Shown: positions 831 to 42,628 of the stretch, piece by piece
How positions within the stretch are numbered: position 1 is the first letter of the stretch
How the letters are laid out: each line of letters starts with the position of its first letter
IMG/VR virus record: IMGVR_UViG_3300045988_054691
Span: 1 to 42,628 of that record
Origin: a virus
DNA length: 42,628 nucleotides
Direction: 5' to 3' (one strand)
The notes under the pieces: generated by a model
Databases searched by the model: none
What the model saw: only the letters and a program-made list of their open reading frames with translations
What the model was told of the DNA's origin: nothing
Translations under genes and position numbers: made by a program

Positions 831-3251
831 ATGGCAAATATACAGTCATATCTTGATCAGATTGCCAATGCTGTATACGGTGAAGAAATCAGATCATCAA
901 TTATCAATAGTTTGCAGAAAGTCAATGATGATAATGATTCTTATGCTGATCTGAAAAAGGAAGTAATTGCTGCAAGAGATGACATCAATGATCAGGTAGA
1001 TCAGTTTGATAAGAAGATGGAAGTTGCATCTGAAATATCAAAGAAACTTGAAGAGGATACAGCATCAGGAAATCAGACTCATTCAGATCTGACAAATTCA
1101 ATTACCACAGCACAGAGTGAGAGAAGCAAGTTAGAATCTGCTTATGAGAATGTGGGAAAGGTTGTAGAATCGGCAAATGAGAAAAAGGATGCTCTTGACG
1201 TATCTTTATCCTCAGCTAATACAGCGAAGAAAAATCTTGATGGCTCTGTGACTACAGCAACCACAACAGAGAAGAGTCTTGATGAAACCATTCAGACAAG
1301 TGAACAGAGGAAGAAAAATCTTGATTCTTCTATAACATCCGCTAATAAGATTTTTTCTAACCTTAATGATGCAATCACAAGTGCTAATAATGCAAAAAGT
1401 AATCTGACTCAGGTAACTGATTCCGCAGATAGTGCTAAGACTGCTCTGAGTGAAGTTATAGACAGTGCAACAGCTACTAAGTCAATCATGGATGCATCGG
1501 TAAAATCTGCAACCACAGCTAATACAAACCTCAGTGAGAGTATTAAAAATGCGACTACAGCAAAAAATACGCTGCAAGGGGTAATAGATTCAGCGAGTGA
1601 AATTAAAGGACAGTTGGATAGTTCCAATACTACAGCAGTAACATCAAAGAAAAATCTTGATTCTGCAATTTCTGATGCAAGTACAGCAAAAAGTCAGCTT
1701 CAGGAAGTAATTAACAGTGCCGATTCAATAAAAAAGGCATTATCTGATGTAATTTTGACAGCAAATACAGCAAAGTCAAATCTTGACACATCTGTAAATA
1801 CAGCTAATGGTGTATTACAGTCACTAAGTGCAGAAAACGCAAGTGCTGCAAGTAATATTGATGAATTGAAAAGTGAAAACTTCAACAGTCAAGAAATTCT
1901 TTCAGGTGTGGCAGATATTCGTGCCTATTTGGGTATCACTGCTGATGATATTGTTGGTATTCAGGTCGATTACAAAAATAAAACATTCAAAAGACTTGCC
2001 GGAGCAGCCAACCTTACAAAAGGTTCTGATTTTGACAAGTTCACAATGTTTGGCGGTCGTAAACGCTGTAATGTGGCTGACGATGGTTCTATAGTAGCAT
2101 GGTATGGTGACGCAGATTACAAAGAAGATGGTTCAATGGGTCAGGTCATGGTGTATCAGCCAAAGTTCTATTACTTAGTGTGTCCGGTAGAGTATGACCC
2201 TATTGATACAGGCATTGGTTACCACTTAAGAAAGGCAAACTATTATGTGTCAGAAAAGCCACGTGCAGGTTTCAGACTTCACCCTGCATTCTATGATGCA
2301 GCAGGAAATGAACTGGAATTTATTCTTGATTCAGCGTTTGAAGGTAGTATTTATGATGCATCAGCAAGTGCATATTTGTTAAATGATGAACAGGTGATGA
2401 CAGTTGGTGAAGATAAGTTTTCATCAATTGCAGGTACTAAGCCTGCATCCGGTCTTACACAGAATCTTACAAGACCAAATATTGAAATCATGGCACAGAA
2501 TAGGGGTGCGAACTGGCACGGTGATTTCATAAAACCAACTTCTGCAAGACAATTGTTAATGATCATCGAAGGTGGAATAATGAACACACAGACAGCATAT
2601 GGTCAGGGTGTTGTGAGTATTCCTGACAACGGTTCATATAACTGTTCTTCAATTACTGGAAGTACATCAGAAATTGGTAATACTTCCGGTAGAGCATCAA
2701 AAACAATAAATACAAAAGGTGATGCAAGCACGACAGAAACAGTAGATGGAAAAACCGCAGTATCTTGGAGAGGTACAGAAAACCCTTGGGGTAACATTTG
2801 GAAATTTGTTTATGGTATCAATTTTTATTGTACTGTAGATAAACCATTTGAAGGATATGTTTGTACTGATCTGAACTTTGCAGAATCAAAGAACAGTGGA
2901 AATTATGAAAATATTGGTTTCACGCTTCCATCAGCAAACGGTTACATTTCAGCAATAGGATATTCCACAAAGTATGATTGGTTATTCTTACCATCAGAGG
3001 TAACCGGGAACAGCTCACTCCCTGTCGGTGATTATTACTATCAGAATAATACTTGGAATGGTTACCGTATTGCTCAGTTGGGCGGTTGTTGGAGTAATTG
3101 GGCTAATGCGGGCGGTTTCTATTGGGCTCTGAATAGCGGTGTTGGTTATCGTGGTCGGAATGTCGGGGGTCGCTTGGTATATATTCCAACACGTGATTCT
3201 GCTACTTATACCGCTGCAATCGAAGCATGGAAGCAGAAAATGGCAGCTTAA
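831..3251 (+). CDS. tail fibre / receptor-binding protein, DGR variable (target) protein
   Basis: 806 aa. The N-terminal ~350 aa are a Ser/Thr/Ala/Asn-rich periodic coiled-coil-like stalk. The C-terminal globular part ends in ...YRIAQLGGCWSNWANAGGFYWALNSGVGYRGRNVGGRLVYI, which is the VR and is typical of C-type-lectin-fold DGR targets. The gene sits after the baseplate genes across the circular junction. Confidence 0.85.
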   Translation: MANIQSYLDQIANAVYGEEIRSSIINSLQKVNDDNDSYADLKKEVIAARDDINDQVDQFDKKMEVASEISKKLEEDTASGNQTHSDLTNSITTAQSERSKLESAYENVGKVVESANEKKDALDVSLSSANTAKKNLDGSVTTATTTEKSLDETIQTSEQRKKNLDSSITSANKIFSNLNDAITSANNAKSNLTQVTDSADSAKTALSEVIDSATATKSIMDASVKSATTANTNLSESIKNATTAKNTLQGVIDSASEIKGQLDSSNTTAVTSKKNLDSAISDASTAKSQLQEVINSADSIKKALSDVILTANTAKSNLDTSVNTANGVLQSLSAENASAASNIDELKSENFNSQEILSGVADIRAYLGITADDIVGIQVDYKNKTFKRLAGAANLTKGSDFDKFTMFGGRKRCNVADDGSIVAWYGDADYKEDGSMGQVMVYQPKFYYLVCPVEYDPIDTGIGYHLRKANYYVSEKPRAGFRLHPAFYDAAGNELEFILDSAFEGSIYDASASAYLLNDEQVMTVGEDKFSSIAGTKPASGLTQNLTRPNIEIMAQNRGANWHGDFIKPTSARQLLMIIEGGIMNTQTAYGQGVVSIPDNGSYNCSSITGSTSEIGNTSGRASKTINTKGDASTTETVDGKTAVSWRGTENPWGNIWKFVYGINFYCTVDKPFEGYVCTDLNFAESKNSGNYENIGFTLPSANGYISAIGYSTKYDWLFLPSEVTGNSSLPVGDYYYQNNTWNGYRIAQLGGCWSNWANAGGFYWALNSGVGYRGRNVGGRLVYIPTRDSATYTAAIEAWKQKMAA
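3068..3180 (+). repeat. DGR variable repeat (VR)
   Basis: Aligns without gaps to 3339..3451 (offset 271). There are 22 mismatches, all at positions that are A in the TR. The VR ends 23 codons before the stop of the target gene. Confidence 0.9.
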
Positions 3252-3276
3252 AATGTAACTTAAAAATCAAATATAA

Positions 3277-3580
3277 GGTTGAAAGAATCTCTGATATTGT
3301 TTGTTATTACCTGTAATGAACACCATGAAAAACAAATATATTGCTCAATTAGGCAGTAATTGGAATAATTGGGATAATGCAGGCAGTTTCTATTGGAATC
3401 TGAATAACAGTGTTGGTAATCGTAATCGGAATATCAGGGGTCACTTAATAATTGCAAAATATAGCCGGATGGAAACATCCGGCTATTTCTATAAATTGTG
3501 TGTATTCTTTCAACCGTGCCACTTGGCAAAACATATAAATAAGCGGTGCAAGACAACCCTTTAAGGGAATACCGCTTTAC
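3277..3580 (+). ncRNA. putative DGR RNA (TR plus structured spacer)
   Basis: A 12-bp perfect inverted repeat, GGTTGAAAGAAT (3277-3288) and ATTCTTTCAACC (3504-3515), encloses the TR. A 9-bp hairpin, ATAGCCGGA/TCCGGCTAT (3461-3486), lies 10 nt after the TR. A nested hairpin, AAGCGGT...ACCGCTT, spans 3541-3577. The transcript ends are not determined. Confidence 0.5.
3339..3451 (+). repeat. DGR template repeat (TR)
   Basis: This is the A-rich copy of the VR, with 37 adenines by my count, 22 of which differ in the VR. In the VR reading frame it is rich in AAT/AAC/AGT codons (...SNWNNWDNAGSFYWNLNNSVGNRNRNIRGH...). Confidence 0.9.
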
Positions 3581-3661
3581 TTATCACAAAATAAGGAAAG
3601 GTCAACCGTATTTACCGGGCAGTAATGCCGACTGAAATTCGGATAATGCAAATACCAAGGA

Positions 3662-4792
3662 ATGAAACGCTATGATCACTTATATGAAAAGATTTATGAC
3701 CTTGAAAATTTAAGAAAAGCACACCAACACGCAAAGAAAGGAAAAGGTTGGTACAGAGAGGTTCAGGAGATTGACAAAGATCCTGACAAGTACCTGAAAC
3801 AGATTCAGGAAATGCTTATCAACCACACTTACAAAACATCTGACTATGAGGTGTTTTATAAACAGGACGGTAAGAAGTTAAGGAAAATTTACAAACTGCC
3901 TTATTTCCCTGACAGAATTTGTCAGTGGGCTATCTTACAGGTTATTGAACCTTGTATCATCAATAACTTAACTGCTGACACCTATTCAGCAATACCAAAC
4001 AGAGGTATACACAAGGGTCTGACAAAATTACAATCTGCAATGTGGAATGACCCGGAAGAATGCAGATATTGCTTAAAATTGGACGCAAGACACTATTATC
4101 AGTCAATCAACCACGATCTTCTGAAAGAGAAGTATTCAAGAATGTTCAATGATAATGAACTATTGTGGTTGTTAAATGAAATCATTGACAGTATTGAAAC
4201 AGCAGAGATTGAGGACTTAACAGCAATCTATCTGTTGGAAGAAGATATTGACCCTGAAACTGGTATACCGATAGGCAACTACTTGTCACAGTATTCAGGT
4301 AACTATTATTTTTCAAGTTTTGATCACTGGATAAAAGAACAGAAGCACGTTAAATACTACTTCCGTTATATGGATGATATGGTTATCTTTGGCAAGACAA
4401 AAGAAGAACTGTTTGCCTTGAAGAAAGAGATTGATATTTATTTCAGGAATGAATTGAAATTGAACATAAAAGAAAACTGGCAGGTGTTCCCATCGTATGT
4501 AAGAGGTGTTGACTTCTTAGGTTACAGAACATTTTACAAGTATACATTACTTAGAAAAAGCACCTGTTTGGAAATGGAAAAGAAAATGACCGCTATCAGG
4601 AACAAAGTGGAAGCCGGGAACATGATGAACTATTCAGAGTGGTGTTCAATCAATTCTTACAAAGGTTGGTTGAAATATGCTGACACCTTCCGGCTATATC
4701 AAAAGTATGTTGTACCGCTGTTACCTTATGCGGATGATTATTATATACGCAACATAAAACCAAACACAAAGAAAGGATTGAATGTAGCATGA
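3662..4792 (+). CDS. DGR reverse transcriptase
   Basis: 376 aa. The N-terminus MKRYDHLYEKIYDLENLRKAHQHAKKGKG is typical of DGR RTs. It has a YMDD catalytic box (FRYMDDMVIFG) and an IGNYLSQ motif (the I/LGxxxSQ signature of DGR RTs). It lies directly downstream of the TR. Confidence 0.9.
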   Translation: MKRYDHLYEKIYDLENLRKAHQHAKKGKGWYREVQEIDKDPDKYLKQIQEMLINHTYKTSDYEVFYKQDGKKLRKIYKLPYFPDRICQWAILQVIEPCIINNLTADTYSAIPNRGIHKGLTKLQSAMWNDPEECRYCLKLDARHYYQSINHDLLKEKYSRMFNDNELLWLLNEIIDSIETAEIEDLTAIYLLEEDIDPETGIPIGNYLSQYSGNYYFSSFDHWIKEQKHVKYYFRYMDDMVIFGKTKEELFALKKEIDIYFRNELKLNIKENWQVFPSYVRGVDFLGYRTFYKYTLLRKSTCLEMEKKMTAIRNKVEAGNMMNYSEWCSINSYKGWLKYADTFRLYQKYVVPLLPYADDYYIRNIKPNTKKGLNVA

Positions 4793-5055
4793 TTGATTAT
4801 GGAAAACAGAAAAGCACCGTCAGACCGGAAGAACTGGAACTGACGGAAACAAAAGTATTTGTCAGTTCCAATATCACGGAAGTGAATGAAGATGAAACTG
4901 ACGGACAGCCGGGATTTACTGGATATGAATTTGACCTTATCGAGTATGACAAGGACGAATACATTAAAATTCAGGCAGAGAAGAATGCTGATCTTGAAAA
5001 TGAAATTACACAGGCGCAGATTGCTATGTGTGAAATCTATGAAATGATGGGATAA
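4789..5055 (+). CDS. acidic 88-aa hypothetical protein, translationally coupled to the RT
   Basis: Its ATG overlaps the RT stop (ATGA). The C-terminal helix ...NADLENEITQAQIAMCEIYEMMG resembles the C-terminus of ORF 42164..42535 (...KNEMLEGCILEMSEMVYQ). It is acidic and not Avd-like. Confidence 0.55.
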   Translation: MIDYGKQKSTVRPEELELTETKVFVSSNITEVNEDETDGQPGFTGYEFDLIEYDKDEYIKIQAEKNADLENEITQAQIAMCEIYEMMG

Positions 5056-5778: not shown

Positions 5779-6072
5779 ATGGAACAGATTATGAATTATG
5801 TAAAACCAGAGCTTGTTGTCGTGGCAGTTGTCCTGTATTTTATCGGAATCGGACTAAAAAAATCTGAAACCGTAGCGGACAAATACATTCCGGCAATCCT
5901 TGGAGTTGTTGGAGTTGTAATTTGCGGAATCTATGTTGTTGCAACTTGCGACCTTAAAGGTACACAAAATATCGCAATGGCAATTTTCACAGCAATTGTT
6001 CAGGGCATTCTGGTTGCGGGACTTAGCAATTATGTAAACCAGGTGTTTAAACAGTTAAATAAAGCTGAGTAG
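5779..6072 (+). CDS. holin (Hol44 / phage_holin_5-like)
   Basis: 97 aa with multiple TM segments (VVVAVVLYFIGIGL, AILGVVGVVICGIYVV, AIFTAIVQGILVAGL). The N-terminus MNYVKPEL... and ..KYIP.ILGVV.. are typical of this holin family. It lies directly upstream of the endolysin. Confidence 0.75.
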   Translation: MEQIMNYVKPELVVVAVVLYFIGIGLKKSETVADKYIPAILGVVGVVICGIYVVATCDLKGTQNIAMAIFTAIVQGILVAGLSNYVNQVFKQLNKAE

Positions 6073-6106: not shown

Positions 6107-7444
6107 ATGGCACATTTATTTATTATCGCTGGTCATGGCGCCGGTGATTGCGGAGCAGTAGGATACGGATATACGGAGGCAGAGCGTGTACGTGCGCTCG
6201 CTTCCAGATTATCAGCATTAGGCGGTGGAAATGTCACGGTCGCTGATATGAACCGGAACTGGTACGCAGACAATGGAATCATGAGCCTTAATATTCCGAA
6301 AGATTGGCAGATATTAGAGTTGCACATGGACAGCGCAGGAGCTTCGGCAAAGGGCGGTCATGTTATTATCAATTCCGCTTACAGCGCAGACCAGTATGAC
6401 ACGGCACTGGCAAGCTTTATCGGCTCGTTCTTCCCGGGGCGTGCAAAAAATATCGTTCCGAGAAGTGACCTCGCCAACCCGAACAGGGCTGCCGCAAGAG
6501 GATATAGCTATCGACTTCTGGAAAACGGCTTCATTACCAATTCTGGCGATCTGAATAAATTCAACAGTCAGATGGATGATCTGGCAAGAGGTATCCTTAA
6601 TGCATTCGGCATCGCTACGGCATCTCCGGCAAAAGAGGATTCTGACGGCAAGGTAACATCTGGTGGAACATCTCAGGACTCCGTACAGCATTACGGTAAG
6701 GTATCTTACCAGTCACATATCCGTGACATCGGCTGGGCGTGCTGGCAGTCTGATGGTCGTATGTCAGGAACGACAGGACAGAACCGGAGAATCGAAGCGT
6801 TCCGTCTTGTTCCTGTCGGAGAAACAGACGTGGTAGTGCATATCAAGGATGTAGGCGACAAAGAGTTTAAAAACATTAACAAAGACACAATCCTTGGCAC
6901 TACAGGACAGAACAAACGTATCGAAGCAATCAAGATTACCGGTAAAGAAACAAACTATGCTTACAGAGTACACCAGAAAAATATCGGTTGGAGTGCATGG
7001 ACATTTAACGGTAATTGGTGTGGGGTAAAAGGAGAGAAACTACAGATTGAAGCAATCGAGATAACAAAAGCGAAATTCCTTGTAGCTCCATATGTACAAA
7101 ATAAAGGTTGGCTACAAGATTCTGTATGTAACAATGCTGTCGGAATAACAGGACATAATTTACGTTTAGAAGCATTTAAAATCAATCCTTTAGGCATGGA
7201 TATTGGTGTTAAAGCACATATACAGGATAAAGGTTGGGTTGATTATGGAACAATAAACAAAGATACTGTTATCGGCACAACAAATGAGAGCAAACGTATA
7301 GAATGCTTATGTTTTAAAGGTGACTTTGAATATAGAGTACATATTCAAAACAGTGGCTGGACTAATTGGACAAAAGCTGATGGAGTAGCAACACTCGGAA
7401 CTGTAGGACAGGCATTAAGAATTGAAGCTATTCAGTTTAGATAA
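6107..7444 (+). CDS. endolysin: N-acetylmuramoyl-L-alanine amidase (Amidase_3-like) plus six ChW repeats
   Basis: The N-terminal IIAGHGAGDCGAVG ... ELHMDSA ... LENGFITN fits the amidase_3 pattern. The C-terminal half carries six ~45-aa repeats with ..H.....GW......G...GTTGQ..RIEA..I, matching the clostridial hydrophobic-W repeat. Confidence 0.85.
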   Translation: MAHLFIIAGHGAGDCGAVGYGYTEAERVRALASRLSALGGGNVTVADMNRNWYADNGIMSLNIPKDWQILELHMDSAGASAKGGHVIINSAYSADQYDTALASFIGSFFPGRAKNIVPRSDLANPNRAAARGYSYRLLENGFITNSGDLNKFNSQMDDLARGILNAFGIATASPAKEDSDGKVTSGGTSQDSVQHYGKVSYQSHIRDIGWACWQSDGRMSGTTGQNRRIEAFRLVPVGETDVVVHIKDVGDKEFKNINKDTILGTTGQNKRIEAIKITGKETNYAYRVHQKNIGWSAWTFNGNWCGVKGEKLQIEAIEITKAKFLVAPYVQNKGWLQDSVCNNAVGITGHNLRLEAFKINPLGMDIGVKAHIQDKGWVDYGTINKDTVIGTTNESKRIECLCFKGDFEYRVHIQNSGWTNWTKADGVATLGTVGQALRIEAIQFR

Positions 7445-7926: not shown

Positions 7927-9201
7927 TTATGACGTTTTTGCTTGTGTGATTTTTTCAAAGAGATCAACAGAACGTTCAGCCATCTTTTCAGTATCATGCA
8001 CGTAGGTCTGCAATGTGGTTTCTATGTTGGTGTGTCCTAATCGTGTCTGAACATTCTTAACATCAGCACCGGATTCAATCAACAGTGTTGCGTGTGTATG
8101 CCTTAAGCTGTGATAATCAAAAGCAAGATGCATTTCATGGTGTATAACCCTACTGCAATACTTAAATGAATCAGTGGAAGTATACTGACCGTTTTCATCA
8201 ATACACACCAACCTGATACGCTGTAGTGGACTTTCAACACATTTTTGAATTGGTACAACCCTGATCATGTCATTACCCTTTTCATCAGTTTCAATCTTTT
8301 TAACATGAATCGTGTAATATTCACCATACTTCATTTCATTCCTAAGCTGTTCAGCTTTTTCCTGTTTCAATGCCTGATATAGTGTTTCACCAAAAGGGAC
8401 TTCACGAATGGAAGTAAAGGTTTTTGGTGTAGTAAAGTACCAAGATGAACGCTGTTCTTTCTTACCTTTCTTTTCAACAACCTTTCTTACATCTGCACCA
8501 AAGTTACGTTTTACAATCTGCTTATTTACAGATATTTTTCTTTTATCAAAATCAATATCATCCCAAGTAAGACCAAAGGTTTCTGATATTCGTAAGCCTG
8601 TATAAAATCCAATCATTAAAGGTATATAGTACCGGGTGTTTTGAAATCTGTCACGAATTTTACACCATTCATCTAATGTCAGTACAATTCGTTCACGTGG
8701 TTTTCTTTCAACCTTTGGAAATTTCACATATTGCATGGGGTTAGACTGTAAATAGTGCATTGGTTCAACTGCATAATTCAGTGCAGCACTGAATACAGAC
8801 AAAATACCAACTAAATGACTTTTTGAATTACCGTTCATTTTAAGTTCAACTGCATATTCCTGTAATACTGCCGGAGTGATTGCTTTTAATCTATACATAC
8901 CAAATTTTGGAATTAGATGCCCTTGAATGATTCTTAAATACCCTACTTGGGTGTTATATTTAAGGTTGGTCTTACAGTACAGATCAAACCACTGATTCAG
9001 GTAATCAGCAACCGTTATTTCTGTCGGTTCAAATACAGTTCCGGCATTATTGTATTCATTCATAGCAGCAGTCAATGCCTGTTCAGCTTCTTTCTTGGTT
9101 CTGAATCCACCCTTTTCTTTTTTCTTTCTTTTACCGTCAATTTTTCCAAGGTCAAAATAATATGACCATGTTGTACCTCTTTTTCTTACTCCACCTTGCA
9201 T
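7927..9201 (-). CDS. int: tyrosine integrase (phage integrase family)
   Basis: The C-terminal catalytic region reads ...GLRISETFGLTWDDID...HSLRHTHATLLIESGADVKNVQTRLGHTNIETTLQTYVH (R..HxxR..Y pattern). I chose the ATG at 9201 with AAAGGAAG upstream rather than the GTG at 9210 used in the ORF track. Confidence 0.9.
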   Translation of the reverse strand: MQGGVRKRGTTWSYYFDLGKIDGKRKKKEKGGFRTKKEAEQALTAAMNEYNNAGTVFEPTEITVADYLNQWFDLYCKTNLKYNTQVGYLRIIQGHLIPKFGMYRLKAITPAVLQEYAVELKMNGNSKSHLVGILSVFSAALNYAVEPMHYLQSNPMQYVKFPKVERKPRERIVLTLDEWCKIRDRFQNTRYYIPLMIGFYTGLRISETFGLTWDDIDFDKRKISVNKQIVKRNFGADVRKVVEKKGKKEQRSSWYFTTPKTFTSIREVPFGETLYQALKQEKAEQLRNEMKYGEYYTIHVKKIETDEKGNDMIRVVPIQKCVESPLQRIRLVCIDENGQYTSTDSFKYCSRVIHHEMHLAFDYHSLRHTHATLLIESGADVKNVQTRLGHTNIETTLQTYVHDTEKMAERSVDLFEKITQAKTS

Positions 9202-9296
9202 AAATAGCACTTCCTTTCATTGAAACCATAAGGAATGAATGCTATAATGGTTTTTGCATAGTCCAAATCATTTCATTCCTTTGGTTTGGTTTTGCT

Positions 9297-11214: not shown

Positions 11215-11620
11215 AGTCTCATAAGCAACAGAGCAAGCAGGAAAAACCGGGTGAAGCGATAGGGCTACACACAAGTAACATGGTAGTTATGCTGACAAAT
11301 GTATCAGACAGAGTGTGTGAAGAATAAACATGACCCGGCAAAACAGTTGAAGAAAGTAGGAACTGTAGGACAAGAAAGCAAAGTGAGCTGTACTAATTGA
11401 AGAAAACAGTTTAGCACTAGCCAATAGTGACTTTACTCCTTAACCAAGAAGCAGTTAAACGGAAGAATCAACGAGCGAGAGGACACAGTACTTTGTTGTT
11501 TATGTAACCAGCTTCCGGTCACTCAGACCATCCATTGCCTGACCGGAAGTATAAAAAAGAGAATGAAATGATAATTGGAAAAACCAAAGGAATGAAATTT
11601 ATATAAGTGAGGTGTGCGGA

Positions 11621-11812
11621 ATGAAGAAGTATTTGATTATTTTCACAGAACGGTTTCCTGAATGTTATGAAGGAACAAGACAATATTGCAAGACTGTTGA
11701 CACTAAAGCAGAGGTCAAAGAAGAAATCAGAAAGTTGGAAGAATCACCGTTTACAGTTTCTTTTACAGTGTATCAAATTGGAGAATATGGACTGATGACG
11801 GTTGTTGAATAA
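11621..11812 (+). CDS. hypothetical early protein (63 aa)
   Basis: ATG at 11621 with AGTGAGGTG upstream. It is the first ORF of the early operon. I recognise no family. Confidence 0.5.
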   Translation: MKKYLIIFTERFPECYEGTRQYCKTVDTKAEVKEEIRKLEESPFTVSFTVYQIGEYGLMTVVE

Positions 11813-11882
11813 GCCGAAACGGTCAGCAATGACCGTCTGCCGGGAATGACCACCCGGTACTGATGATGGCAGGTCAGAAAGG

Positions 11883-14017: not shown

Positions 14018-14384
14018 AGAACAAAAACTTCAAGCGTATGCAATGCGTCTTGATGGGTGTACTTATCAAGAAATTGCAAATAAATTTGGTGTCACTAGAC
14101 AGTGTATTCAACAAAATATTGGTACAGTTGGTGTCACGAGGGATAACAGACGTCAGGTATTGCGGTTGTCAGAAAATTGCATTTATACCGGATTGGCAAA
14201 ATTCATAAAAGAAAATGAGATTAGTTCTACAGTACTCGCTGATGTTATTGGAGTTTGTAGACTAGCTGCTTATCAGAGAATTGTTGGAGAAAGAAATTTT
14301 AACATATCGGATATATACAAAATTCTTAATTATACAGGTATGACGTTTGAAGAATGTTTTGAATTAAAAGAAAGTGAGGTTTAA
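14010..14384 (+). CDS. sigma-70 region-4-like HTH protein
   Basis: MTKEQKLQAYAMRLDGCTYQEIANKFGVTRQCIQQNI has the sigma/LuxR-type HTH pattern. The start overlaps the stop of the previous gene. Confidence 0.55.
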   Translation: MTKEQKLQAYAMRLDGCTYQEIANKFGVTRQCIQQNIGTVGVTRDNRRQVLRLSENCIYTGLAKFIKENEISSTVLADVIGVCRLAAYQRIVGERNFNISDIYKILNYTGMTFEECFELKESEV

Positions 14385-14388
14385 TAAC

Positions 14389-15222
14389 ATGAAAAAATTT
14401 GAATTTACAGGAGAAACCAAGACAATAAGTTTACTTTTTAGAACGGCTACACTTCACAGAATCAGAGCGGTAGCAGAATTTGGTCTTGTCAAAATCGGTG
14501 ATCTTGGCGGCTGGATTGAGAAAGAAGAAAATCTTTCCCATGAAGGAAAGGCTTGGGTTTGCGGTGATGCCAAGGTTTGCGGTGATGCCGAGGTTTGGGG
14601 CAATGCCAAGGTTTGGGGCAATGCCGAGGTTTGGGGCAATGCCAAGGTTTGCGGTGATGCCGAGGTTTGGGGCAATGCCAAGGTTTGGGGCAATGCCAAG
14701 GTTTGGGGCAATGCCAAGGTTTGGGGCAATGCCAAGGTTTGCGGTGATGCCGAGGTTTGGGGCAATGCCAAGGTTTGCGGTGATGCCGAGGTCTTTTCTG
14801 CAAGTCATGTGTTAGTGATCGGTGCTATTGGTAGCCGGGACGATTTCACAACATTCTTTAGAGATAAAGACAATGAGATCACCGTCAAATGCGGTTGTTT
14901 CCTCGGAAAGATTGATGAGTTCTTGAAAAAGGTTGCAAAAACACACAAAGATTCAAAATATGCATTTGTGTACAGAGCCGCCGTTGAAGTCGCAAAATTA
15001 CAAATTGATCTCAGTCTGGAGAAACCTTTAGAAGTGGGTGATAAGGTCAAAATTATTTCACCAGAAGAAAATGATCCGGAAAAGAACTGGAACACGGAAA
15101 TGAGTCAGTATCTCGGTACTATTATGACAATCAAGAAGGTTTGCAGAGGCGGCTACTACATGGAAGAAGATAATGAGAAATGGTACTGGAACAATTACCG
15201 GATTGCAGGAAAGGTCGAATAA
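14389..15222 (+). CDS. hexapeptide-repeat (beta-helix-like) protein of unknown function
   Basis: 13 consecutive 6-aa units ([CW]G[DN]A[KE]V) are flanked by non-repetitive N- and C-terminal domains. RBS AGTGAGG lies upstream of the ATG at 14389. Confidence 0.7.
   Translation: MKKFEFTGETKTISLLFRTATLHRIRAVAEFGLVKIGDLGGWIEKEENLSHEGKAWVCGDAKVCGDAEVWGNAKVWGNAEVWGNAKVCGDAEVWGNAKVWGNAKVWGNAKVWGNAKVCGDAEVWGNAKVCGDAEVFSASHVLVIGAIGSRDDFTTFFRDKDNEITVKCGCFLGKIDEFLKKVAKTHKDSKYAFVYRAAVEVAKLQIDLSLEKPLEVGDKVKIISPEENDPEKNWNTEMSQYLGTIMTIKKVCRGGYYMEEDNEKWYWNNYRIAGKVE
14560..14793 (+). repeat. 18-bp tandem repeat, 13 units
   Basis: Two unit types, TGCGGTGATGCC[A/G]AGGTT and TGGGGCAATGCC[A/G]AGGTT, are near-identical at the DNA level. 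The repeat keeps several frames open, which produces the spurious overlapping ORFs. Confidence 0.95.
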
Positions 15223-36857: not shown

Positions 36858-39395
36858 TTGGATATTTTTTCGTTGGTCGGAAAAATAACGATCAATTACG
36901 CTGATGCAGTGAACAACATTGAAAAGGTTTCAAAGTCTGCAAAGGACACCGCTGAAACACTGGAAAATGTTGACAAAAAGGCAGATAGTGCAGGTGACTC
37001 AGTAGAAGATGCCGGACAAGCTGCCAAGAATGCAGACAGTGGATTTACGACATGGAAAGCCACGCTTGCTAATTTAGCATCTACAGCAATCACAAAAGTA
37101 ATTTCAGGATGTACACAGTTAGCTGAAAAAATGGCAGATGTGACAAAATCAGCGGTTGGTCACTATGCTGAATATGAACAGTTGGTTGGTGGGGTTGAAA
37201 CACTATTCAAAGACAGTTCCGGTAAACTGATTGATTATGCTGAAAAGGCATATAAGACAGCAGGAATGAGTTCAAATCAGTACATGAATACAGCAACGTC
37301 ATTTGCTGCTTCACTGATTCAGGGTCTTGGTGGTGATACTGCAAAAGCGGTTGAACTGACCAACCTTGCTATCACAGATATGTCAGATAACGCTAACAAG
37401 ATGGGTACTGACATAGGTTCTATACAGGACGCTTATCAGGGTTTTGCGAAGCAGAATTATACCATGCTGGATAACCTCAAGTTAGGATATGGTGGTACAC
37501 AATCGGAGATGATTCGACTAATCAATGACTCCGGTGTACTTGGTGAAAAGATTGAAAGTTTGGATAACGTAACGTTTGACCAAATGATTGAAGCTATTCA
37601 CAAGATTCAGGACAACTTAGGTATAACCGGAACAACAGCACTTGAAGCAGGTACGACAATATCAGGTTCATGGAGTTCAGTACAGGCATTGTTTGAAAAT
37701 ATCATGACAAAAGTAGGCTCGAAACTTGCACCTACTGTTATGGGATTTTTACAGCAATTGTCAGACTGGATGGAAACAATAGATTGGAATGCGTTTGCAA
37801 CATCTGTCGGTGATGCCCTACAAAGGGTATTTGACTGGATTCAAAAAATTGATTTTACAACATTCTTTGAAAAAGGAATGGACGGTGTTGAAAACTTCCT
37901 TGAAAAACTAGGTGGTCTTATTGAAGATGTGCCTAAGATTATTCAAACGTTCAAGGATTGGTCACCACTGATAGCCGGAGTTGCTGCCGGGTTCGTAACC
38001 TTAAAGGTTGCAATGGCAATATCATCATTGATTAGTGCCATGACAACAGCATGGACAGCATACAAAACAGCAAACGAAGGTGCTACTATTGCACAGTGGC
38101 TTTTCAATGCTGCATTAAATGCTAACCCTATAGTTCTTATAGTCACGCTTGTGGCAGGGCTTGTGGTTGCACTGATCACATTATGGAATACCAATGATGG
38201 ATTCAGAGAAGCAGTCACAAATGCTTGGGAAAAAATAAAGGAAGTCTTTGGTACGGTTATTGACGCTATCAAAGGCTTTTTTAGTGGATTGGTGGAGAAA
38301 GTACAGACTGCATGGGAATCTGTAAAAGAAACAGTAACCAATGTGTTTACTGCAATAGCTGATACTGTAAGTGCAGTGTGGGAAATAATCAAGAATGTGA
38401 TCACAGTCGGTATCATGCTGATTGGAAGTATTATTGATGCAGCATTCCAGATCATAACACTCCCGTGGCGGTTTATTTGGGAGAATTGCAAGGAATACAT
38501 CATATCGGCATGGAATTACATCAAAGATACAGTATCGTCGGCACTTAACATTATATCAAGTGTGATTAGTGACGCATGGAATACGGTATCAAGTTTCCTG
38601 ACTTATATTTTGAGTAATATCAAGAATAAATTTGTCAGTGATTGGAATGCAATAAAATCTGTTGTATCCAATGTTTTGCTCATGATCAGCTTGACAGTTA
38701 CCAGTGTGATGAACAGTATCTGGTCAGTTGTTTCATCAATACTCAATGTGATTAAATCTGTATTCAGCAGCGCGTGGAATGGAATCAAGTCTGTAGTATC
38801 TAGTGCTGTAAATAACATCAAGTCCGTAGTATCCAGCGGTCTTAATGGTGCAAAATCGACAGTAACTGGTGTATTGAACAGTATCAGGTCCGCATTTTCT
38901 TCTGTGTGGGATGGCTGCAAAAATATAGTTGGTAATGCAATTGGTCATATTAAGTCACTCATGAATTTCTCATGGAGCTTGCCGAGTTTGAAATTACCAC
39001 ATTTCAGTATTTCTGGAAAATTCAGTCTGAATCCTCCGTCTGTACCGAAGCTTGGAATCGAATGGTACAAAAAGGCAATGGACGATGGTATGATCATGAA
39101 TCAGCCGACTATTTTCGGTTATAACGCTAAGTCTAACCAGTTCCTTGCAGGTGGTGAAGCTGGATCTGAAACAGTAGTTGGTACACAGAATCTGATGGAC
39201 ATGATTCAGGAAGCTGTGAATAATGCCGGAAGTGGAGACGGAGATAGTGAAGCAACCCGTGCATTACTGGAAGCAATCTTTAACTGGATGCGAAACGGTG
39301 GATTGTACAAACTGCTGATTGATGTTCTGACGAACGGTGTAGAATTTGAATTTGACAATAGAGAAATTGCAAGGTTGGTGAAAAAGTATGCTTGA
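36858..39395 (+). CDS. tape measure protein
   Basis: 845 aa. TTG start with AAGGGGGTGG upstream. It has a hydrophobic central segment and a C-terminal series of repeats of the type SxxWNxIKSVVSS. Confidence 0.85.
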   Translation: MDIFSLVGKITINYADAVNNIEKVSKSAKDTAETLENVDKKADSAGDSVEDAGQAAKNADSGFTTWKATLANLASTAITKVISGCTQLAEKMADVTKSAVGHYAEYEQLVGGVETLFKDSSGKLIDYAEKAYKTAGMSSNQYMNTATSFAASLIQGLGGDTAKAVELTNLAITDMSDNANKMGTDIGSIQDAYQGFAKQNYTMLDNLKLGYGGTQSEMIRLINDSGVLGEKIESLDNVTFDQMIEAIHKIQDNLGITGTTALEAGTTISGSWSSVQALFENIMTKVGSKLAPTVMGFLQQLSDWMETIDWNAFATSVGDALQRVFDWIQKIDFTTFFEKGMDGVENFLEKLGGLIEDVPKIIQTFKDWSPLIAGVAAGFVTLKVAMAISSLISAMTTAWTAYKTANEGATIAQWLFNAALNANPIVLIVTLVAGLVVALITLWNTNDGFREAVTNAWEKIKEVFGTVIDAIKGFFSGLVEKVQTAWESVKETVTNVFTAIADTVSAVWEIIKNVITVGIMLIGSIIDAAFQIITLPWRFIWENCKEYIISAWNYIKDTVSSALNIISSVISDAWNTVSSFLTYILSNIKNKFVSDWNAIKSVVSNVLLMISLTVTSVMNSIWSVVSSILNVIKSVFSSAWNGIKSVVSSAVNNIKSVVSSGLNGAKSTVTGVLNSIRSAFSSVWDGCKNIVGNAIGHIKSLMNFSWSLPSLKLPHFSISGKFSLNPPSVPKLGIEWYKKAMDDGMIMNQPTIFGYNAKSNQFLAGGEAGSETVVGTQNLMDMIQEAVNNAGSGDGDSEATRALLEAIFNWMRNGGLYKLLIDVLTNGVEFEFDNREIARLVKKYA

Positions 39396-40218
39396 TGTAG
39401 CAAGATACGTGAACCATCTGAACCAAAGTATTGGCTTTGGTTTGGGTGGTATTTTTATTACAGATTCCGAACTTAGGAATTATGAATGGGAATATGATAC
39501 TGATTATGACGAGATTACCAACTTTCATAAAGGTGTCAAAGAGAAAAAAATGAAGATCATTATTTCTGCCGCCACTGAGGAAGAGGGGATTGCAAAAAGA
39601 AATGCTATCTTCCAGATCTTTGAATCTGATATTCTTGCGGAACAGTCAGGAAGATTGTATCAAGATGGCTATTACCTTAATTGCTATATCGTAGCATCGA
39701 AGAAAGCAAAGTGGTATTTGACAAAACGGTATCTGGAGATTGAAGTCACCATTGCAACAGATCAGCCGGACTGGGTACAGGAAAGAGAGTACAATTTCCT
39801 GAAGACAGAAGGCGCGACGATTGAAATGGATAATCTGAAGAAATATCCATACAAATACGGATATTATTATCTGAATCAGGTATCATCTTCCTCGATCAAT
39901 AATGTTAGTATCACGGAATCAGATTTTGTGCTGCGGATATATGGTTCCGTATCAAAACCGCTTGTGAAGATTGGAGACAATACCTATCAGGTTAATATTT
40001 CTTTAAATGCAGGTGAGAGATTGGAGATTGATTCCCGGAGAAAAACGGTTAGATTGGTGCACGCTGACGGGTATACAGAAAATGTTCTCTGGTCAGCCGG
40101 AAAAGAACACTACATCTTTGAGAAAATTGCGTCCGGTACACAGATTATTGCGTGGGACGGTAGCTTTTCATTTGACTTGATCCTCGTTGATAAAAGGAGT
40201 GAACCATTGTGGAAGTAA
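39388..40218 (+). CDS. distal tail protein (Dit-like)
   Basis: 276 aa, directly after and overlapping the tape-measure gene. Confidence 0.6.
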   Translation: MLDVARYVNHLNQSIGFGLGGIFITDSELRNYEWEYDTDYDEITNFHKGVKEKKMKIIISAATEEEGIAKRNAIFQIFESDILAEQSGRLYQDGYYLNCYIVASKKAKWYLTKRYLEIEVTIATDQPDWVQEREYNFLKTEGATIEMDNLKKYPYKYGYYYLNQVSSSSINNVSITESDFVLRIYGSVSKPLVKIGDNTYQVNISLNAGERLEIDSRRKTVRLVHADGYTENVLWSAGKEHYIFEKIASGTQIIAWDGSFSFDLILVDKRSEPLWK

Positions 40219-41177
40219 TGTATACAGACGTAAACAGGCTTCCACAAGGGAGCCTTGAAAAGTATTCGATTGATTTAGAACTCGGAGGTGACAATGACTT
40301 TGAGCTTCAGATGAACGTAAAAAATCATTGCATGAGTGCCGGATGCATCTGGTATGTAAAAGATGAGGAATATGGCGGGATTGTGGATGATGTAAAAGTC
40401 GACACAGAAAAATCCAAAGTATATTATTCCGGAAGAAGTTGGCGTGGCGTTCTGGAAAAGAAAGTGATCAGACCGGACACCGGAAAGGATTACCTTGTGG
40501 TATCCGGAGATGCAAATGATATCCTTGCGTTGCTGATAAAGCGGTGTGATCTGGTAGATCTGTTTGCTGTTCCTGGAACATCTTCCGGAATACAGATAAG
40601 CAGCTATCAATTTCCGAGGTACATTGATGCCTATTCCGGCATTGTAAAAATGTTGACCTCGGTGAGTGCAAAGCTGAAAATTGTCTACAACGACAAGGAT
40701 TCTTGTGTGAATATATCAGCTGTCCCGATCGAAGATCTGTCAGAGAAATATGAGTATTCCGATGACTACGGAATGAAGATCATAATCGAAAAGAAAACCG
40801 GAGGGGTAAATCATCTGATCTGTCTTGGAGCTGGCGAATTGGCAGCCAGAACAGTGATTGATTTGTATGTAGATAAGACAGGAGAGATCAGTGAAAAACA
40901 GTCATATTTTGGAGAATATGAGATTGCAGAAACATATGATTATGGAAATTCTGAATCTGCTGCAGAGCTGAAAGAAAAAGGAATTGAACATCTGAAGGAA
41001 CTGAAAAGTTCGGATTCTGTCTCAGCATCATTCGGTAAATTGGATGTAGATATCGGTGATATTGTTGGTGGAAGAAACCGGGCGACAGGAATTGTTCTGA
41101 AAGAACCGGTTACGCAGGAAATTGTAAAAATAAAAAATGGCATAGAAACTATAACATATAAGGTTGGTGAGGAATAA
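40218..41177 (+). CDS. tail-associated / baseplate protein (Sipho_Gp37-like, Tal position)
   Basis: The ATG overlaps the Dit stop (TAATG). The sequence style (..YYSGRSWRGVLEKKVI.., ..GGVNHLICLGAGELAARTVIDLY..) resembles siphovirus Gp37-like minor structural proteins. Confidence 0.55.
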   Translation: MYTDVNRLPQGSLEKYSIDLELGGDNDFELQMNVKNHCMSAGCIWYVKDEEYGGIVDDVKVDTEKSKVYYSGRSWRGVLEKKVIRPDTGKDYLVVSGDANDILALLIKRCDLVDLFAVPGTSSGIQISSYQFPRYIDAYSGIVKMLTSVSAKLKIVYNDKDSCVNISAVPIEDLSEKYEYSDDYGMKIIIEKKTGGVNHLICLGAGELAARTVIDLYVDKTGEISEKQSYFGEYEIAETYDYGNSESAAELKEKGIEHLKELKSSDSVSASFGKLDVDIGDIVGGRNRATGIVLKEPVTQEIVKIKNGIETITYKVGEE

Positions 41178-41179
41178 CA

Positions 41180-42046
41180 ATGGCAACAAATTATTTAGAT
41201 ACAGGAGATACAGGACGTGCAGTTAGTGCAGAATCTGACGGTGCACTATTTGCCGGGATTTTTGGAAGTGCAAAATATGTATTAGAAAACGGCAGCCAGT
41301 TCAAGGCAGAGGTACAGTCCAATAACATTGTAAAAATCTCCGATGGTGATGCAGTCATGTACGGACGACACGTAAGGATCCCGGCGAATGATAGCGCACT
41401 GGTGACTATTAACAATGGACATTCTGGAACGAACAGGATTGATCTGATCGTGTTCCGGTACACAAAGGATAGCACCGGAAAAGAAACGGTTGATCTGGTT
41501 GTGATCCATGGAGAAGATTCTACCGGAACAGCTACAGCACCGACGGCGGTGGATGGAAATATACTGACCGGTGCAATGCAGTCAGACTTTCCTCTGTATA
41601 CCGTGGAACTGAATGGAATCAACATTGTAAAGGTGAATCCACTGTTCAATGTGATCGGTAATATCAGCAAGTTAAAAGAAGAGCTTACTGAATTAAATAG
41701 CAATTTAACCAAAACTAACACTGTTTTAGAGAACAGGAAACCAATAATCGTTGATTCAACTGCGCAAGGAACAGTAAATTTGGATACCAATAGCTTTTTG
41801 AAAGTTGGCATTACATATGCCTTTATCGTTACAGTTTCCTCCAATATCAGCAGTGAAAGCTATAAACAGGAAATCAATTGTGCATTAAACAATGTAAATA
41901 TGGGAAATAACGGAAACTATTACAGACTTACCTCTACATTTGCAGGTAAATGCACTAAAGGCGATAAGATTCAAATTACATCATATAAAAATGGTGGATC
42001 TTGGAACGGTTTTGCGACAAGAGCTATTTTTATACCAGTTAGCTAA
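41180..42046 (+). CDS. tail / baseplate fibre-like structural protein
   Basis: 288 aa and beta-rich, following the Tal-position gene. A coiled-coil segment (NISKLKEELTELNSNLTKTNTVLE) separates two globular parts. Confidence 0.5.
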   Translation: MATNYLDTGDTGRAVSAESDGALFAGIFGSAKYVLENGSQFKAEVQSNNIVKISDGDAVMYGRHVRIPANDSALVTINNGHSGTNRIDLIVFRYTKDSTGKETVDLVVIHGEDSTGTATAPTAVDGNILTGAMQSDFPLYTVELNGINIVKVNPLFNVIGNISKLKEELTELNSNLTKTNTVLENRKPIIVDSTAQGTVNLDTNSFLKVGITYAFIVTVSSNISSESYKQEINCALNNVNMGNNGNYYRLTSTFAGKCTKGDKIQITSYKNGGSWNGFATRAIFIPVS

Positions 42047-42071
42047 AATAAGTAAATAAACTTATTTATTT

Positions 42072-42100
42072 ACACTCGGCATTAGTCGGGTGTTTTTGTT
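42072..42100 (+). terminator. hairpin plus T-run
   Basis: ACACTCGG pairs with TCGGGTGT (8 bp including two G-U pairs), followed by TTTTT. Confidence 0.45.
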
Positions 42101-42163
42101 ATGCGCTTTTATATATGTAACTTTATCAATCCCTCTAAAAAGAAGAAAGGGGCAAACAGAAAA

Positions 42164-42535
42164 ATGAAAATCACATTCAATGATGGTCAGGAACTGCAGA
42201 TCCAGCAGGTCACTGAGCAGACGGATGGCGCACTTCTGATCAAGACCATTTCAGCACACGAGGATCAGCTGAAGATTTTATTCTCTGATCCGACCACAAC
42301 TAAGAGAATGTCTGTGAGCGAGCGGGATGCAGATACCGTTGTGTATGAAAATTACACGAAGCTTGATGCAATCGTGAAGTACACAGCCGGCATCCTTGGT
42401 GTGCTGATGTACCGGGAAGGAGAAGATCCGGACAGCCGGATAGCAGCTATGGAGACACGACTTAAAAAAGCGGAGGAGAAAAATGAAATGCTCGAAGGAT
42501 GCATTTTGGAAATGTCTGAAATGGTATATCAGTAA
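42164..42535 (+). CDS. hypothetical tail-module protein (123 aa)
   Basis: I chose the ATG at 42164 with AAAGGGG upstream. The C-terminal helix ..KKAEEKNEMLEGCILEMSEMVYQ resembles the C-terminus of ORF 4789..5055. The next gene across the circular junction is the tiny paralog at 49..186. Confidence 0.55.
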   Translation: MKITFNDGQELQIQQVTEQTDGALLIKTISAHEDQLKILFSDPTTTKRMSVSERDADTVVYENYTKLDAIVKYTAGILGVLMYREGEDPDSRIAAMETRLKKAEEKNEMLEGCILEMSEMVYQ

Positions 42536-42551
42536 AACGATAATTGTATTA

Positions 42552-42628
42552 ACCATTTTATTTTTATTCATATTATTACAAATTTCAGGAGGAAAAGAAA
42601 TGATGGCAATGTTATGGGCACAGCAGAT
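42552..42628. repeat. terminal overlap identical to 1..77
   Basis: Identical copy of the first 77 nt, including the RBS and the first 29 nt of the small gene at 49..186. Confidence 0.9.

Follow-up and report, generated by a model that had tools for sequence, protein, structure and literature searches.

Does the pair of near-identical repeats at the end of a phage tail-fibre gene belong to a retroelement that still rewrites its target, or is it the remnant of one? We address this question for IMG/VR virus record IMGVR_UViG_3300045988_054691, positions 1 to 42,628 (here called the window, meaning the whole stretch of 42,628 nucleotides (nt) that was analysed). The original prediction, made by a model reading the sequence, had interpreted the two repeats as the variable repeat (VR) and the template repeat (TR) of a diversity-generating retroelement (DGR). 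We have very little doubt that the locus is an intact DGR with the accessory-free 'target-TR-RT' architecture, RT being the reverse transcriptase, and that it is carried by a temperate phage of gut Lachnospiraceae; judged by its sequence, the element is complete and probably active. The DGR interpretation is supported by an intact RT, by a tail-fibre target with a predicted C-type-lectin (CLec) fold, and by VRs that differ between loci while the TRs are conserved. The principal parts of the element are:

831-3251, + strand: DGR target gene, a tail fibre or tail protein of 806 amino acids (aa), recognised as an open reading frame (ORF) and by PHROG family phrog_5302 'tail protein' (E=2.6e-94)
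1971-3248, + strand: C-terminal domain of the target, with a predicted CLec or formylglycine-generating enzyme (FGE)-like fold (AlphaFold2 and Foldseek), carrying the VR
3068-3180, + strand: VR, 23 codons before the target stop, hypervariable among 49 near-identical proteins and in 73 loci
~3068-3170 and 3171-3180, + strand: sub-parts of the VR, the first presumably rewritten from complementary DNA (cDNA), the second (CGCTTGGTAT) resembling an initiation of mutagenic homing (IMH) site
3339-3451, + strand: non-coding TR that holds 37 adenines and, in the target frame, 10 AAY codons (Y, pyrimidine), identical in 15 loci whose VRs all differ
3662-4792, + strand: DGR reverse transcriptase of 376 aa with YMDD and IGNYLSQ motifs (Pfam RVT_1, E=3e-16)

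The repeat pair, its target and the reverse transcriptase

The VR (3068-3180) and the TR (3339-3451) were aligned by script, without gaps, at an offset of 271 over 113 nt. They differ at 22 of these positions, all 22 of which hold an adenine in the TR and none any other base. The count given in the original prediction, 22 substituted adenines out of 37, is reproduced exactly, and realignment revealed no non-adenine mismatch within the two intervals; the hypergeometric probability for 22 mismatches all falling on the 37 adenines among 113 positions is P=6.4e-14. Adenine content drops from 37 in the TR to 15 in the VR, and the substitutions comprise 17 A>G, 3 A>T and 2 A>C, in line with the earlier statement that changes were mostly to G with some to C or T. 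The two peptides quoted for the repeats were likewise recovered exactly. The homology ends where it had been said to end, with non-adenine mismatches starting at 3066 (C in the VR, T in the TR) and 3181 (A/T); the edge positions 3067 (G/A) and 3180 (T/A) are of the adenine type and ambiguous. While these repeat edges hold, the interval 3068-3451 is too narrow to describe the element, which in functional terms is much larger and covers at least 831-4792. The target gene and the RT ORF are separated by 410 nt of intergenic sequence, which contains the TR, and no second VR was found when both strands of the window were scanned for further copies of the repeat.

The mismatches are of three kinds. 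Twelve are truly hypervariable (3077, 3087, 3088, 3094, 3103, 3126, 3127, 3136, 3147, 3153, 3154 and 3162). Another six (3080, 3084, 3110, 3114, 3138 and 3165) lie at a TR adenine that precedes G, where 92-100% of VRs have G. The four in the terminal ten bases (3172, 3176, 3177 and 3180) are the same in essentially every locus, and are probably fixed VR/TR differences within a zone resembling the IMH and IMH* sites of DGRs rather than products of ongoing mutagenesis.

This division also bears on the codon design that had been read from the repeats. Substitutions were said to concentrate in AAY and AGT codons, and nine do lie in AAY and three in AGT, whereas the other ten are found elsewhere (CAA, TTA twice, GAT, GCA, ATC, AGG, CAC, ATA and the edge position). 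AGT codons had been counted among the variable ones, but they are not diversified and specify Gly in at least 92% of VRs. The proposal of an invariant, adenine-free scaffold of Trp, Phe, Tyr and Gly fails for Tyr, whose codon TAT (3391-3393) contains an adenine and varies, 22 of 49 close relatives having C, D, G or S in its place. The design does avoid stop codons, as no TR codon turns into one by A>N. The count of accessible variants, named earlier as a check, amounts to 15^10 = 5.8e11 proteins from the ten AAY codons alone, and the 32 adenines of the copied part give a theoretical diversity of 1.8e19 DNA sequences and 2.8e17 protein sequences.

The N-terminal half of the target protein is a coiled coil of 42-aa (126-nt) repeats, and its C-terminal 426 aa form the variable-protein domain. 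An AlphaFold2 model of this domain, built on an alignment of 102 representatives with 43-68% identity, reached a predicted local distance difference test score (pLDDT) of 96.8 and a predicted template-modelling score (pTM) of 0.95; it supersedes a run on a shallow alignment (41 sequences, 77-98% identical) with a pLDDT of only 28.5. In a Foldseek search of the PDB, the top match was the DGR variable protein TaqVP (5vf4; E=1e-10, probability 1.0, template-modelling (TM) score 0.43-0.49), followed by Mtd (1yu0-1yu4, E~1e-2), TvpA (2y3c) and then formylglycine-generating enzymes. As modelled, the domain has the CLec/FGE fold found in DGR targets. Within BFVD its superposition reaches TM 0.87-0.89 with proteins from uncultured gut phages named 'tail collar fiber', and TM ~0.7 with crAss-like tail fibres. 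No sequence-level match for the target C-terminus was obtained in Pfam, NCBIfam or the PDB, even with an 18-sequence profile. The domain family itself has thousands of homologues, falling into 2344 clusters at 50% identity, and among 48 homologues that are at least 91% identical the column entropy is essentially confined to the VR.

DGR-type RTs carry the motif [I/L]GxxxSQ where group II and retron RTs have QGxxxSP. The RT ORF of the window, which is intact and starts 211 nt downstream of the TR, matches the PHROG reverse transcriptase at E=4e-118. Its best solved relative is the Bordetella enzyme bRT (8ub7, E=2e-26, residues 2-346), with I181, G182, S186 and Q187 conserved, PIGNYLSQ aligned with PIGSLTSQ, and YMDD kept. 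By these motifs and matches, the enzyme is of the DGR type.

Natural alleles and the context of the mutated adenines

In order to follow the repeat pair through related genomes, loci were gathered by means of the RT (80 from IMG/VR and 44 from genomes). A VR/TR pair is present in 78 of these loci, and the TR is intact in 73. In the 73, 1821 of the 1839 VR/TR mismatches lie at TR adenines. The IMG/VR set contains 70 VRs, all distinct, as opposed to 30 distinct TRs, and the VR allele of the window is unique among the 70. Its exact TR is found in a total of 15 loci; any two of their VRs differ from each other at 10-25 positions, and 97% of these differences coincide with TR adenines. The comparison of VR alleles that the original prediction had proposed as a check was made in this way, and it shows VRs that differ next to TRs that are conserved. 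A tracer is provided by 28 TR columns with non-adenine polymorphism, at which the VR matches its own TR in 99.6% of cases and the TR of another locus in 0.1%. These alleles are direct evidence of information flow from TR to VR and of recurrent natural diversification. When the 300 nt preceding the VR were compared without gaps in the loci that share the TR, 27 differences were counted, a number probably inflated by insertions and deletions and therefore not used.

The natural alleles also indicate that not all adenines are treated alike. At TR adenines before G, the VR has G in 96% and A in 4% of cases, and T or C never (n=410; 68 intact-TR loci). Such AG sites lie at TR positions 3351, 3355, 3381, 3385, 3409 and 3436 (VR 3080, 3084, 3110, 3114, 3138 and 3165). 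At AAT adenines A is kept in 50% of VRs and all four bases are seen; at the AAY sites of relatives, T and C make up 10-30% of the outcomes. The adenines of AGT, AGG, GCA and TTA are not diversified, with G in 92-100% of natural VRs, and AG sites at which the change is synonymous are converted as well (GCA>GCG at TR index 42 in 54 of 55 VRs, TTA>TTG at index 12 in 63 of 65). Conversely, at index 9, the third CAA position with the context AAT, 39 of 54 VRs still have A. A set of 31 distant loci, most of which have clean adenine-only VR/TR pairs and six of which do not, behaves similarly: AG adenines are G in 79% (n=72), versus 20-31% in other contexts.

Two explanations of this bias were discarded. 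'Snowball' hitch-hiking at silent AG sites is unsupported, as all 6 VRs that still have A at index 16 have G at index 12, and both VRs that still have A at index 46 have G at index 42; conversion is thus independent of a mutation at the next selected site downstream. Slippage, in which the base just copied would be copied a second time, was rejected because the A>C changes it predicts for NAC contexts are not what is seen; the outcome there is G. For the BPP-1 enzyme bRT it has been reported that a template G just read biases misincorporation towards A>G, but lowers the error rate (bioRxiv 10.1101/2025.03.24.644984), and a context map of bRT mutagenesis is available (PMC12875486). The AG bias described here agrees with the published one in direction and not in magnitude. 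The near-complete change from AG to GG could reflect a stronger context effect in this RT lineage or selection at the nucleotide level.

We would tentatively, and with more doubt than confidence, go one step further. AG adenines might be masked guanines, which this Avd-less RT lineage reads as G nearly always and independently of protein selection. The TR would then encode invariant Gly, Leu and Ala (AGT, TTA-G, GCA-G), only the adenines of AAY, TAT and ATC would be randomised, and the BPP-1-type RNA, including its Avd-binding stem-loop, would work without Avd or with an unrecognised partner. If this were true, TR and VR would stay ~20% divergent, which would limit the VR-to-TR gene conversion that erodes TRs in ~6% of related contigs, and the mutational programme would be far more deterministic than 'A to N'.

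Decay can be observed among the relatives. Eroded TRs are present in five of the 78 loci (L003, L034, L045, L068 and L070), with 14-29 adenines versus 36-40 and with intact RT ORFs; the erosion takes whole-length, 5'-only, 3'-only and sparse forms. The TR of L068 begins with 25 nt identical to the VR of that locus, and the two repeats of L034 have rare substitutions in common. These eroded TRs point to VR-to-TR gene conversion or to mis-targeted homing into the TR, as far as their sequences tell. In another relative, L125, RT residues 28-368 are deleted between 11-nt direct repeats CAAAGAAAGGA (L125:2880-3010, corresponding to ~3733-4778 in the window), while the TR, an adenine-mutagenised VR and the 88-aa ORF that follows the RT are kept. 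To judge from what it retains, L125 is a frozen DGR.

Structured RNA, a proposed mechanism and rival explanations

The spacer between TR and RT, together with the region before the TR, contains a series of RNA elements, which were derived from folds of individual sequences and from anchored duplex searches:

3277-3288, + strand: upstream strand of a long-range duplex (GGTTGAAAGAAT), the perfect 12-bp complement of 3504-3515, with which it brackets the TR
3442-3451, + strand: IMH*-like TR 3' end (CACTTAATAA), proposed template strand of a primer:template duplex
3461-3486, + strand: hairpin of 11 bp closed by a GAAA (GNRA) tetraloop and lying 10 nt beyond the TR, from folds of related loci
3495-3502, + strand: spacer segment ATTGTGTG, candidate cis-primer strand pairing with the TR 3' end, moderately supported by analogy with BPP-1
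3504-3515, + strand: downstream strand of the long-range duplex (ATTCTTTCAACC), from complementarity, covariation and the minimum free energy (MFE) fold
3517-3533, + strand: stem-loop TGCC-ACTT-GGCA followed by AAACA, the most conserved spacer motif
3541-3577 (approximate), + strand: further spacer hairpin (AAGCGGT...ACCGCTT) from the MFE fold, a possible analogue of the RT-binding stem-loop

The long-range duplex, whose upstream strand begins 62 nt before the TR, occurs in 17 distinct variants among the relatives, positions 4-11 carrying compensatory changes. The mean number of paired positions is 11.1 of 12, versus 7.6 in shuffles (95th percentile 9). At the place of the GNRA hairpin, stem sequences are unrelated between subfamilies, and a hairpin of 9-11 bp is always found. 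The motif TGCC-ACTT-GGCA is present in 75 of the 78 related loci, with one compensatory GC>AU pair, and recurs in distant DGRs with 40-46% identical RTs (Christensenella, Chryseobacterium, Bacteroidales, Ferruginibacter and others), where it precedes the RT by 80-150 nt. The stems of the hairpin at 3541-3577 differ by subfamily yet are complementary (GACGG/CCGTC, GGCGG/CCGCC, AACGG/CCGTT). A single-sequence MFE fold of 3265-3665 recovers the duplex, the GNRA hairpin and the stem-loop (z=-3.7). RNAalifold, applied to a MAFFT alignment of the spacers in which the variable hairpins are misaligned, called only the 4-bp stem-loop. Rfam holds no family for the DGR RNA elements, and a promoter and terminator scan of the window was uninformative. 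In the cryo-electron microscopy (cryo-EM) structure of the BPP-1 ribonucleoprotein, a 'cPRT Stop' duplex, a stem-loop with adenosines and an 'Avd-binding' stem-loop were described, and the same parts were predicted in 207 other DGRs (bioRxiv 10.1101/2023.10.23.563531). By analogy, the elements of the window correspond one-to-one to these published parts: the long-range duplex to the 'cPRT Stop' duplex, TGCC-ACTT-GGCA with the AAACA behind it to the stem-loop with adenosines, and the GNRA hairpin, by position and shape, to the 'Avd-binding' stem-loop.

The 3' ends of the two repeats deserve separate attention. The VR end GGGGGTCGCTTGGTAT and the TR end AGGGGTCACTTAATAA form an imperfect repeat with a GC-rich run at its start and fixed differences, as in the published definition of IMH and IMH* (PMC5758913). 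A in the TR and G in the VR are fixed at TR indices 104, 108 and 109 in all loci (47-65 of 47-65). In two relatives with eroded TRs, L003 and L045, changes reach index 97, yet A is kept at 104, 108 and 109. The VR and TR 3' ends thus behave like IMH and IMH*, that is, like recipient and donor, to the extent that sequence patterns can tell. The TR bases CAC (3442-3444) can pair with a spacer GUG just upstream of the duplex strand, and this putative primer:template pairing covaries (CGC:GCG in L070; CAG:CUG in L079, L080 and L088); an analogous pairing, Sp53-56:TR118-121, is known from BPP-1 (bioRxiv 10.1101/2023.10.23.563531). Because the end bases are invariant, eroded TRs keep them and CAC:GUG covaries, we place the probable start of cDNA synthesis just 5' of TR index 103 (~3441), in which case the last TR bases would never be copied.

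We propose the following course of events. An RNA spanning ~3277-3660 would be made, in which the 12-bp duplex (3277-3288 with 3504-3515) brackets the TR, while the GNRA-capped hairpin, the short stem-loop with its adenosines and the further spacer hairpins would position the RT. Synthesis of cDNA, probably cis-primed from the spacer and presumably independent of Avd, would begin at TR index ~102 (~3441) and proceed 5'-ward through the TR, with the RT faithful on C, G and U and misincorporating opposite A. The cDNA would then replace ~3068-3170 of the tail-fibre gene. The IMH-like VR end (CGCTTGGTAT) would mark the recipient, and the TR, which has CACTTAATAA in its place, would not be one. The outcome would be a CLec receptor-binding tip with ~13 re-randomised codons (ten AAY plus CAA, TAT and ATC), which presumably lets the phage track changing surface receptors of its host.

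Several points weigh against an intact, accessory-free DGR of this kind. From one assembled sequence it cannot be shown that this copy is active. Of the 22 mismatches, ~10 are A>G changes close to fixation and not random outcomes, so that a plain 'A to random N' rule falls short. Three subfamilies (L019, L040 and L056) do not conform to the primer:template pairing. No Avd family is among the matches listed from Pfam scans of 47 window ORFs, and no GC-rich inverted repeat, hairpin or cruciform was found 3' of the VR, where the DNA fold of 3160-3300 scores z=+0.77 versus shuffles. A screen by charge and size found no basic ORF of 100-130 aa near the cassette. Avd is essential in the Bordetella prototype. 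Among catalogued DGRs, 26% lack avd and only 34% have the GC-rich inverted repeat (PMC5758913), and both absences fit known DGR variation.

In distant Bacteroidota loci (L095, L098-L100, L103, L105, L117 and L121), an ORF of 124-156 aa, with motifs such as 'YKYYPWFDME' and 'VGSRL.FK', lies between VR and TR. An Avd profile made from these ORFs was dropped, as they are not Avd-like; unlike the basic four-helix Avd, they may represent a different accessory family.

The alternative that survives best, though we hold it to be improbable, is that the cassette is a fossil: diversification took place in the past, this copy no longer homes, and the VR/TR pattern is frozen. Decayed relatives do exist: five of 78 loci have adenine-poor TRs, and L125 retains its TR and a mutagenised VR although a deletion between the direct repeats removed nearly the whole RT. 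Nor was an Avd found for the cassette of the window. Against this, the window has an intact RT ORF with the catalytic and SQ motifs, a TR that is the same as in 14 other loci and retains all 37 adenines, a full complement of intact RNA elements, and a VR allele met only once among 70.

A partial gene duplication would dispense with the RT altogether. A pseudo-copy of the tail-fibre 3' end, altered by strand-biased A>G change such as deamination, could explain why A>G transitions account for 17 of the 22 changes and why ~10 of these A>G changes are shared by nearly all relatives. It leaves unexplained the five transversions seen here and the T and C outcomes at AAY sites of relatives. The change always has the same direction, away from the non-coding, adenine-rich copy and into the coding one, non-adenine TR polymorphisms recur in the VR of the same genome with 99.6% concordance, VRs differ between genomes with identical TRs, and the repeat lies within a conserved structured RNA beside a bRT-like RT; we give this explanation almost no weight. 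Hardly credible either is an RT of some other system (retron, group II intron, defence-associated RT (DRT) or abortive-infection (Abi) type) that merely sits beside a repeat, given that its weak, sub-threshold matches to group II intron, Drt3a, Drt2, retron and UG/DRT models fall far under the curated NCBIfam cut-offs (98 versus 300 bits for group II, 55 versus 200 for Drt3a, 38 versus 390 for Drt2 and 32 versus 235 for retron St85), that the best solved relative is the DGR enzyme bRT, that neither a maturase or endonuclease domain nor, by Rfam, a retron or intron RNA in the window was found, and that the RNA around the TR has DGR-specific architecture.

The phage, its host and known systems

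The intact DGR favoured here resides in a complete temperate siphovirus of human-gut Lachnospiraceae (Coprococcus comes and relatives). The first 77 nt of the window equal its last 77 nt (1-77 and 42552-42628), indicating a complete circular or terminally redundant genome of ~42.5 kb. The genome is permuted, with the tail module split across the ends; tape-measure, Dit and minor-tail genes at 36858-42535 run into the target gene. The host group was identified because RTs that are 98-99% identical occur in the Lachnospiraceae isolates MGYG-HGUT-00092, MGYG-HGUT-00137 and Coprococcus comes MSK.16.63. GenBank phage records contain no DNA-level or near-identical match to the genome of this abundant, as yet uncultured phage. 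Terminase, portal and scaffold genes are present in the window, and the cassette is followed by:

4789-5055, + strand: acidic 88-aa ORF whose ATG overlaps the RT stop (ATGA), phrog_18126, unknown function
5779-6072: holin, downstream of the target
6107-7444: amidase/ChW endolysin, downstream of the target
7927-9210 (-): integrase

The 88-aa ORF has a net charge of -15 and stands immediately behind the RT in each Lachnospiraceae-type locus, even at identities as low as 39%. In a scan of IMG/VR, all 61 of 61 new loci with this ORF have an RT match upstream, and no homologue was found in GenBank phages. As an Avd-like candidate it was rejected, being acidic and not basic. Whether it is part of the DGR is uncertain, and we do not claim it as such because it persists in the RT-deleted variant L125.

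Two further observations concern other regions of the genome. A full-length RAGATH-8 RNA (11224-11500, + strand, 280 bits) and a type II hammerhead ribozyme (11812-11878, + strand, 52.5 bits), both at the Rfam gathering level, lie 300 nt apart in the early/lysogeny region, between helix-turn-helix (HTH) repressor-like and replication genes. In or beside the gene at 14374-15222 (region 14430-14815), a tandem DNA repeat of ~18-21 nt is open in several frames on both strands, with the repeat peptides 'NLGIAP...', 'LALPQT...' and 'PRFGAM...'.

Phage tail-fibre DGRs, including those of gut phages, have been known since 2002 and are catalogued by tens of thousands. The locus is a further, clean representative of a system that is well known; it does not establish a new kind and, as a DGR, adds nothing categorical. 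Its value lies in a clean natural data set, namely an abundant Lachnospiraceae prophage family with cultured hosts (e.g. Coprococcus comes MSK.16.63), in which dozens of independent VR alleles stand on an identical TR and intermediates of decay, such as eroded TRs and an RT deletion, are visible. An Avd-free cassette keeps the RNA architecture that cryo-EM defined for the Avd-dependent prototype. Together these features offer a tractable gut system in which to test Avd-independent retrohoming and the sequence-context rules of adenine mutagenesis. The data set would also help to predict which residues of gut-phage receptor-binding proteins really vary.

Among known systems, the BPP-1 DGR (mtd-avd-TR-brt) shares with the present element its location on a phage, a tail-fibre receptor-binding target with the VR in a C-terminal CLec-fold domain, adenine-specific mismatches, AAY codons in the TR, IMH/IMH*-like 3' ends, a homologous RT (8ub7, E=2e-26), an RNA duplex that brackets the TR, a stem-loop right after the TR and a short stem-loop with adenosines. 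Unlike BPP-1, the element described here has no avd gene and no GC-rich inverted repeat after the VR; its upstream duplex strand lies in the target-TR intergenic region, whereas that of BPP-1 lies inside avd; its codons are rich in AAT rather than AAC; and its host is a Gram-positive gut anaerobe. The target and Mtd share a fold and differ in architecture (11-12% identity, TM ~0.3). In gene order and in the lack of a detectable accessory gene, the element resembles the DGRs of architecture A1 (target-TR-RT; Wu et al. 2018, PMC5758913), which account for 75 of 372 curated DGRs; RTs of 'Lineage 3' lack avd altogether (PMC5758913). The closest structural match to the C-terminal domain is TaqVP (PDB 5vf4), which itself belongs to the DGR variable proteins and has a CLec fold; it shares 16-17% identity, is a cellular protein rather than part of a phage tail, and matches only part of the fold. 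The DGR modules of other gut phages (crAss-like cr6_1, cr7_1, cr55_1 and others; uncultured Siphoviridae) belong to different phage lineages and hosts (Bacteroidota versus Lachnospiraceae), but they occupy the same habitat, their RTs are 38-43% identical to that of the window, and their tail-fibre C-terminal domains superpose on the target domain at TM 0.67-0.89.

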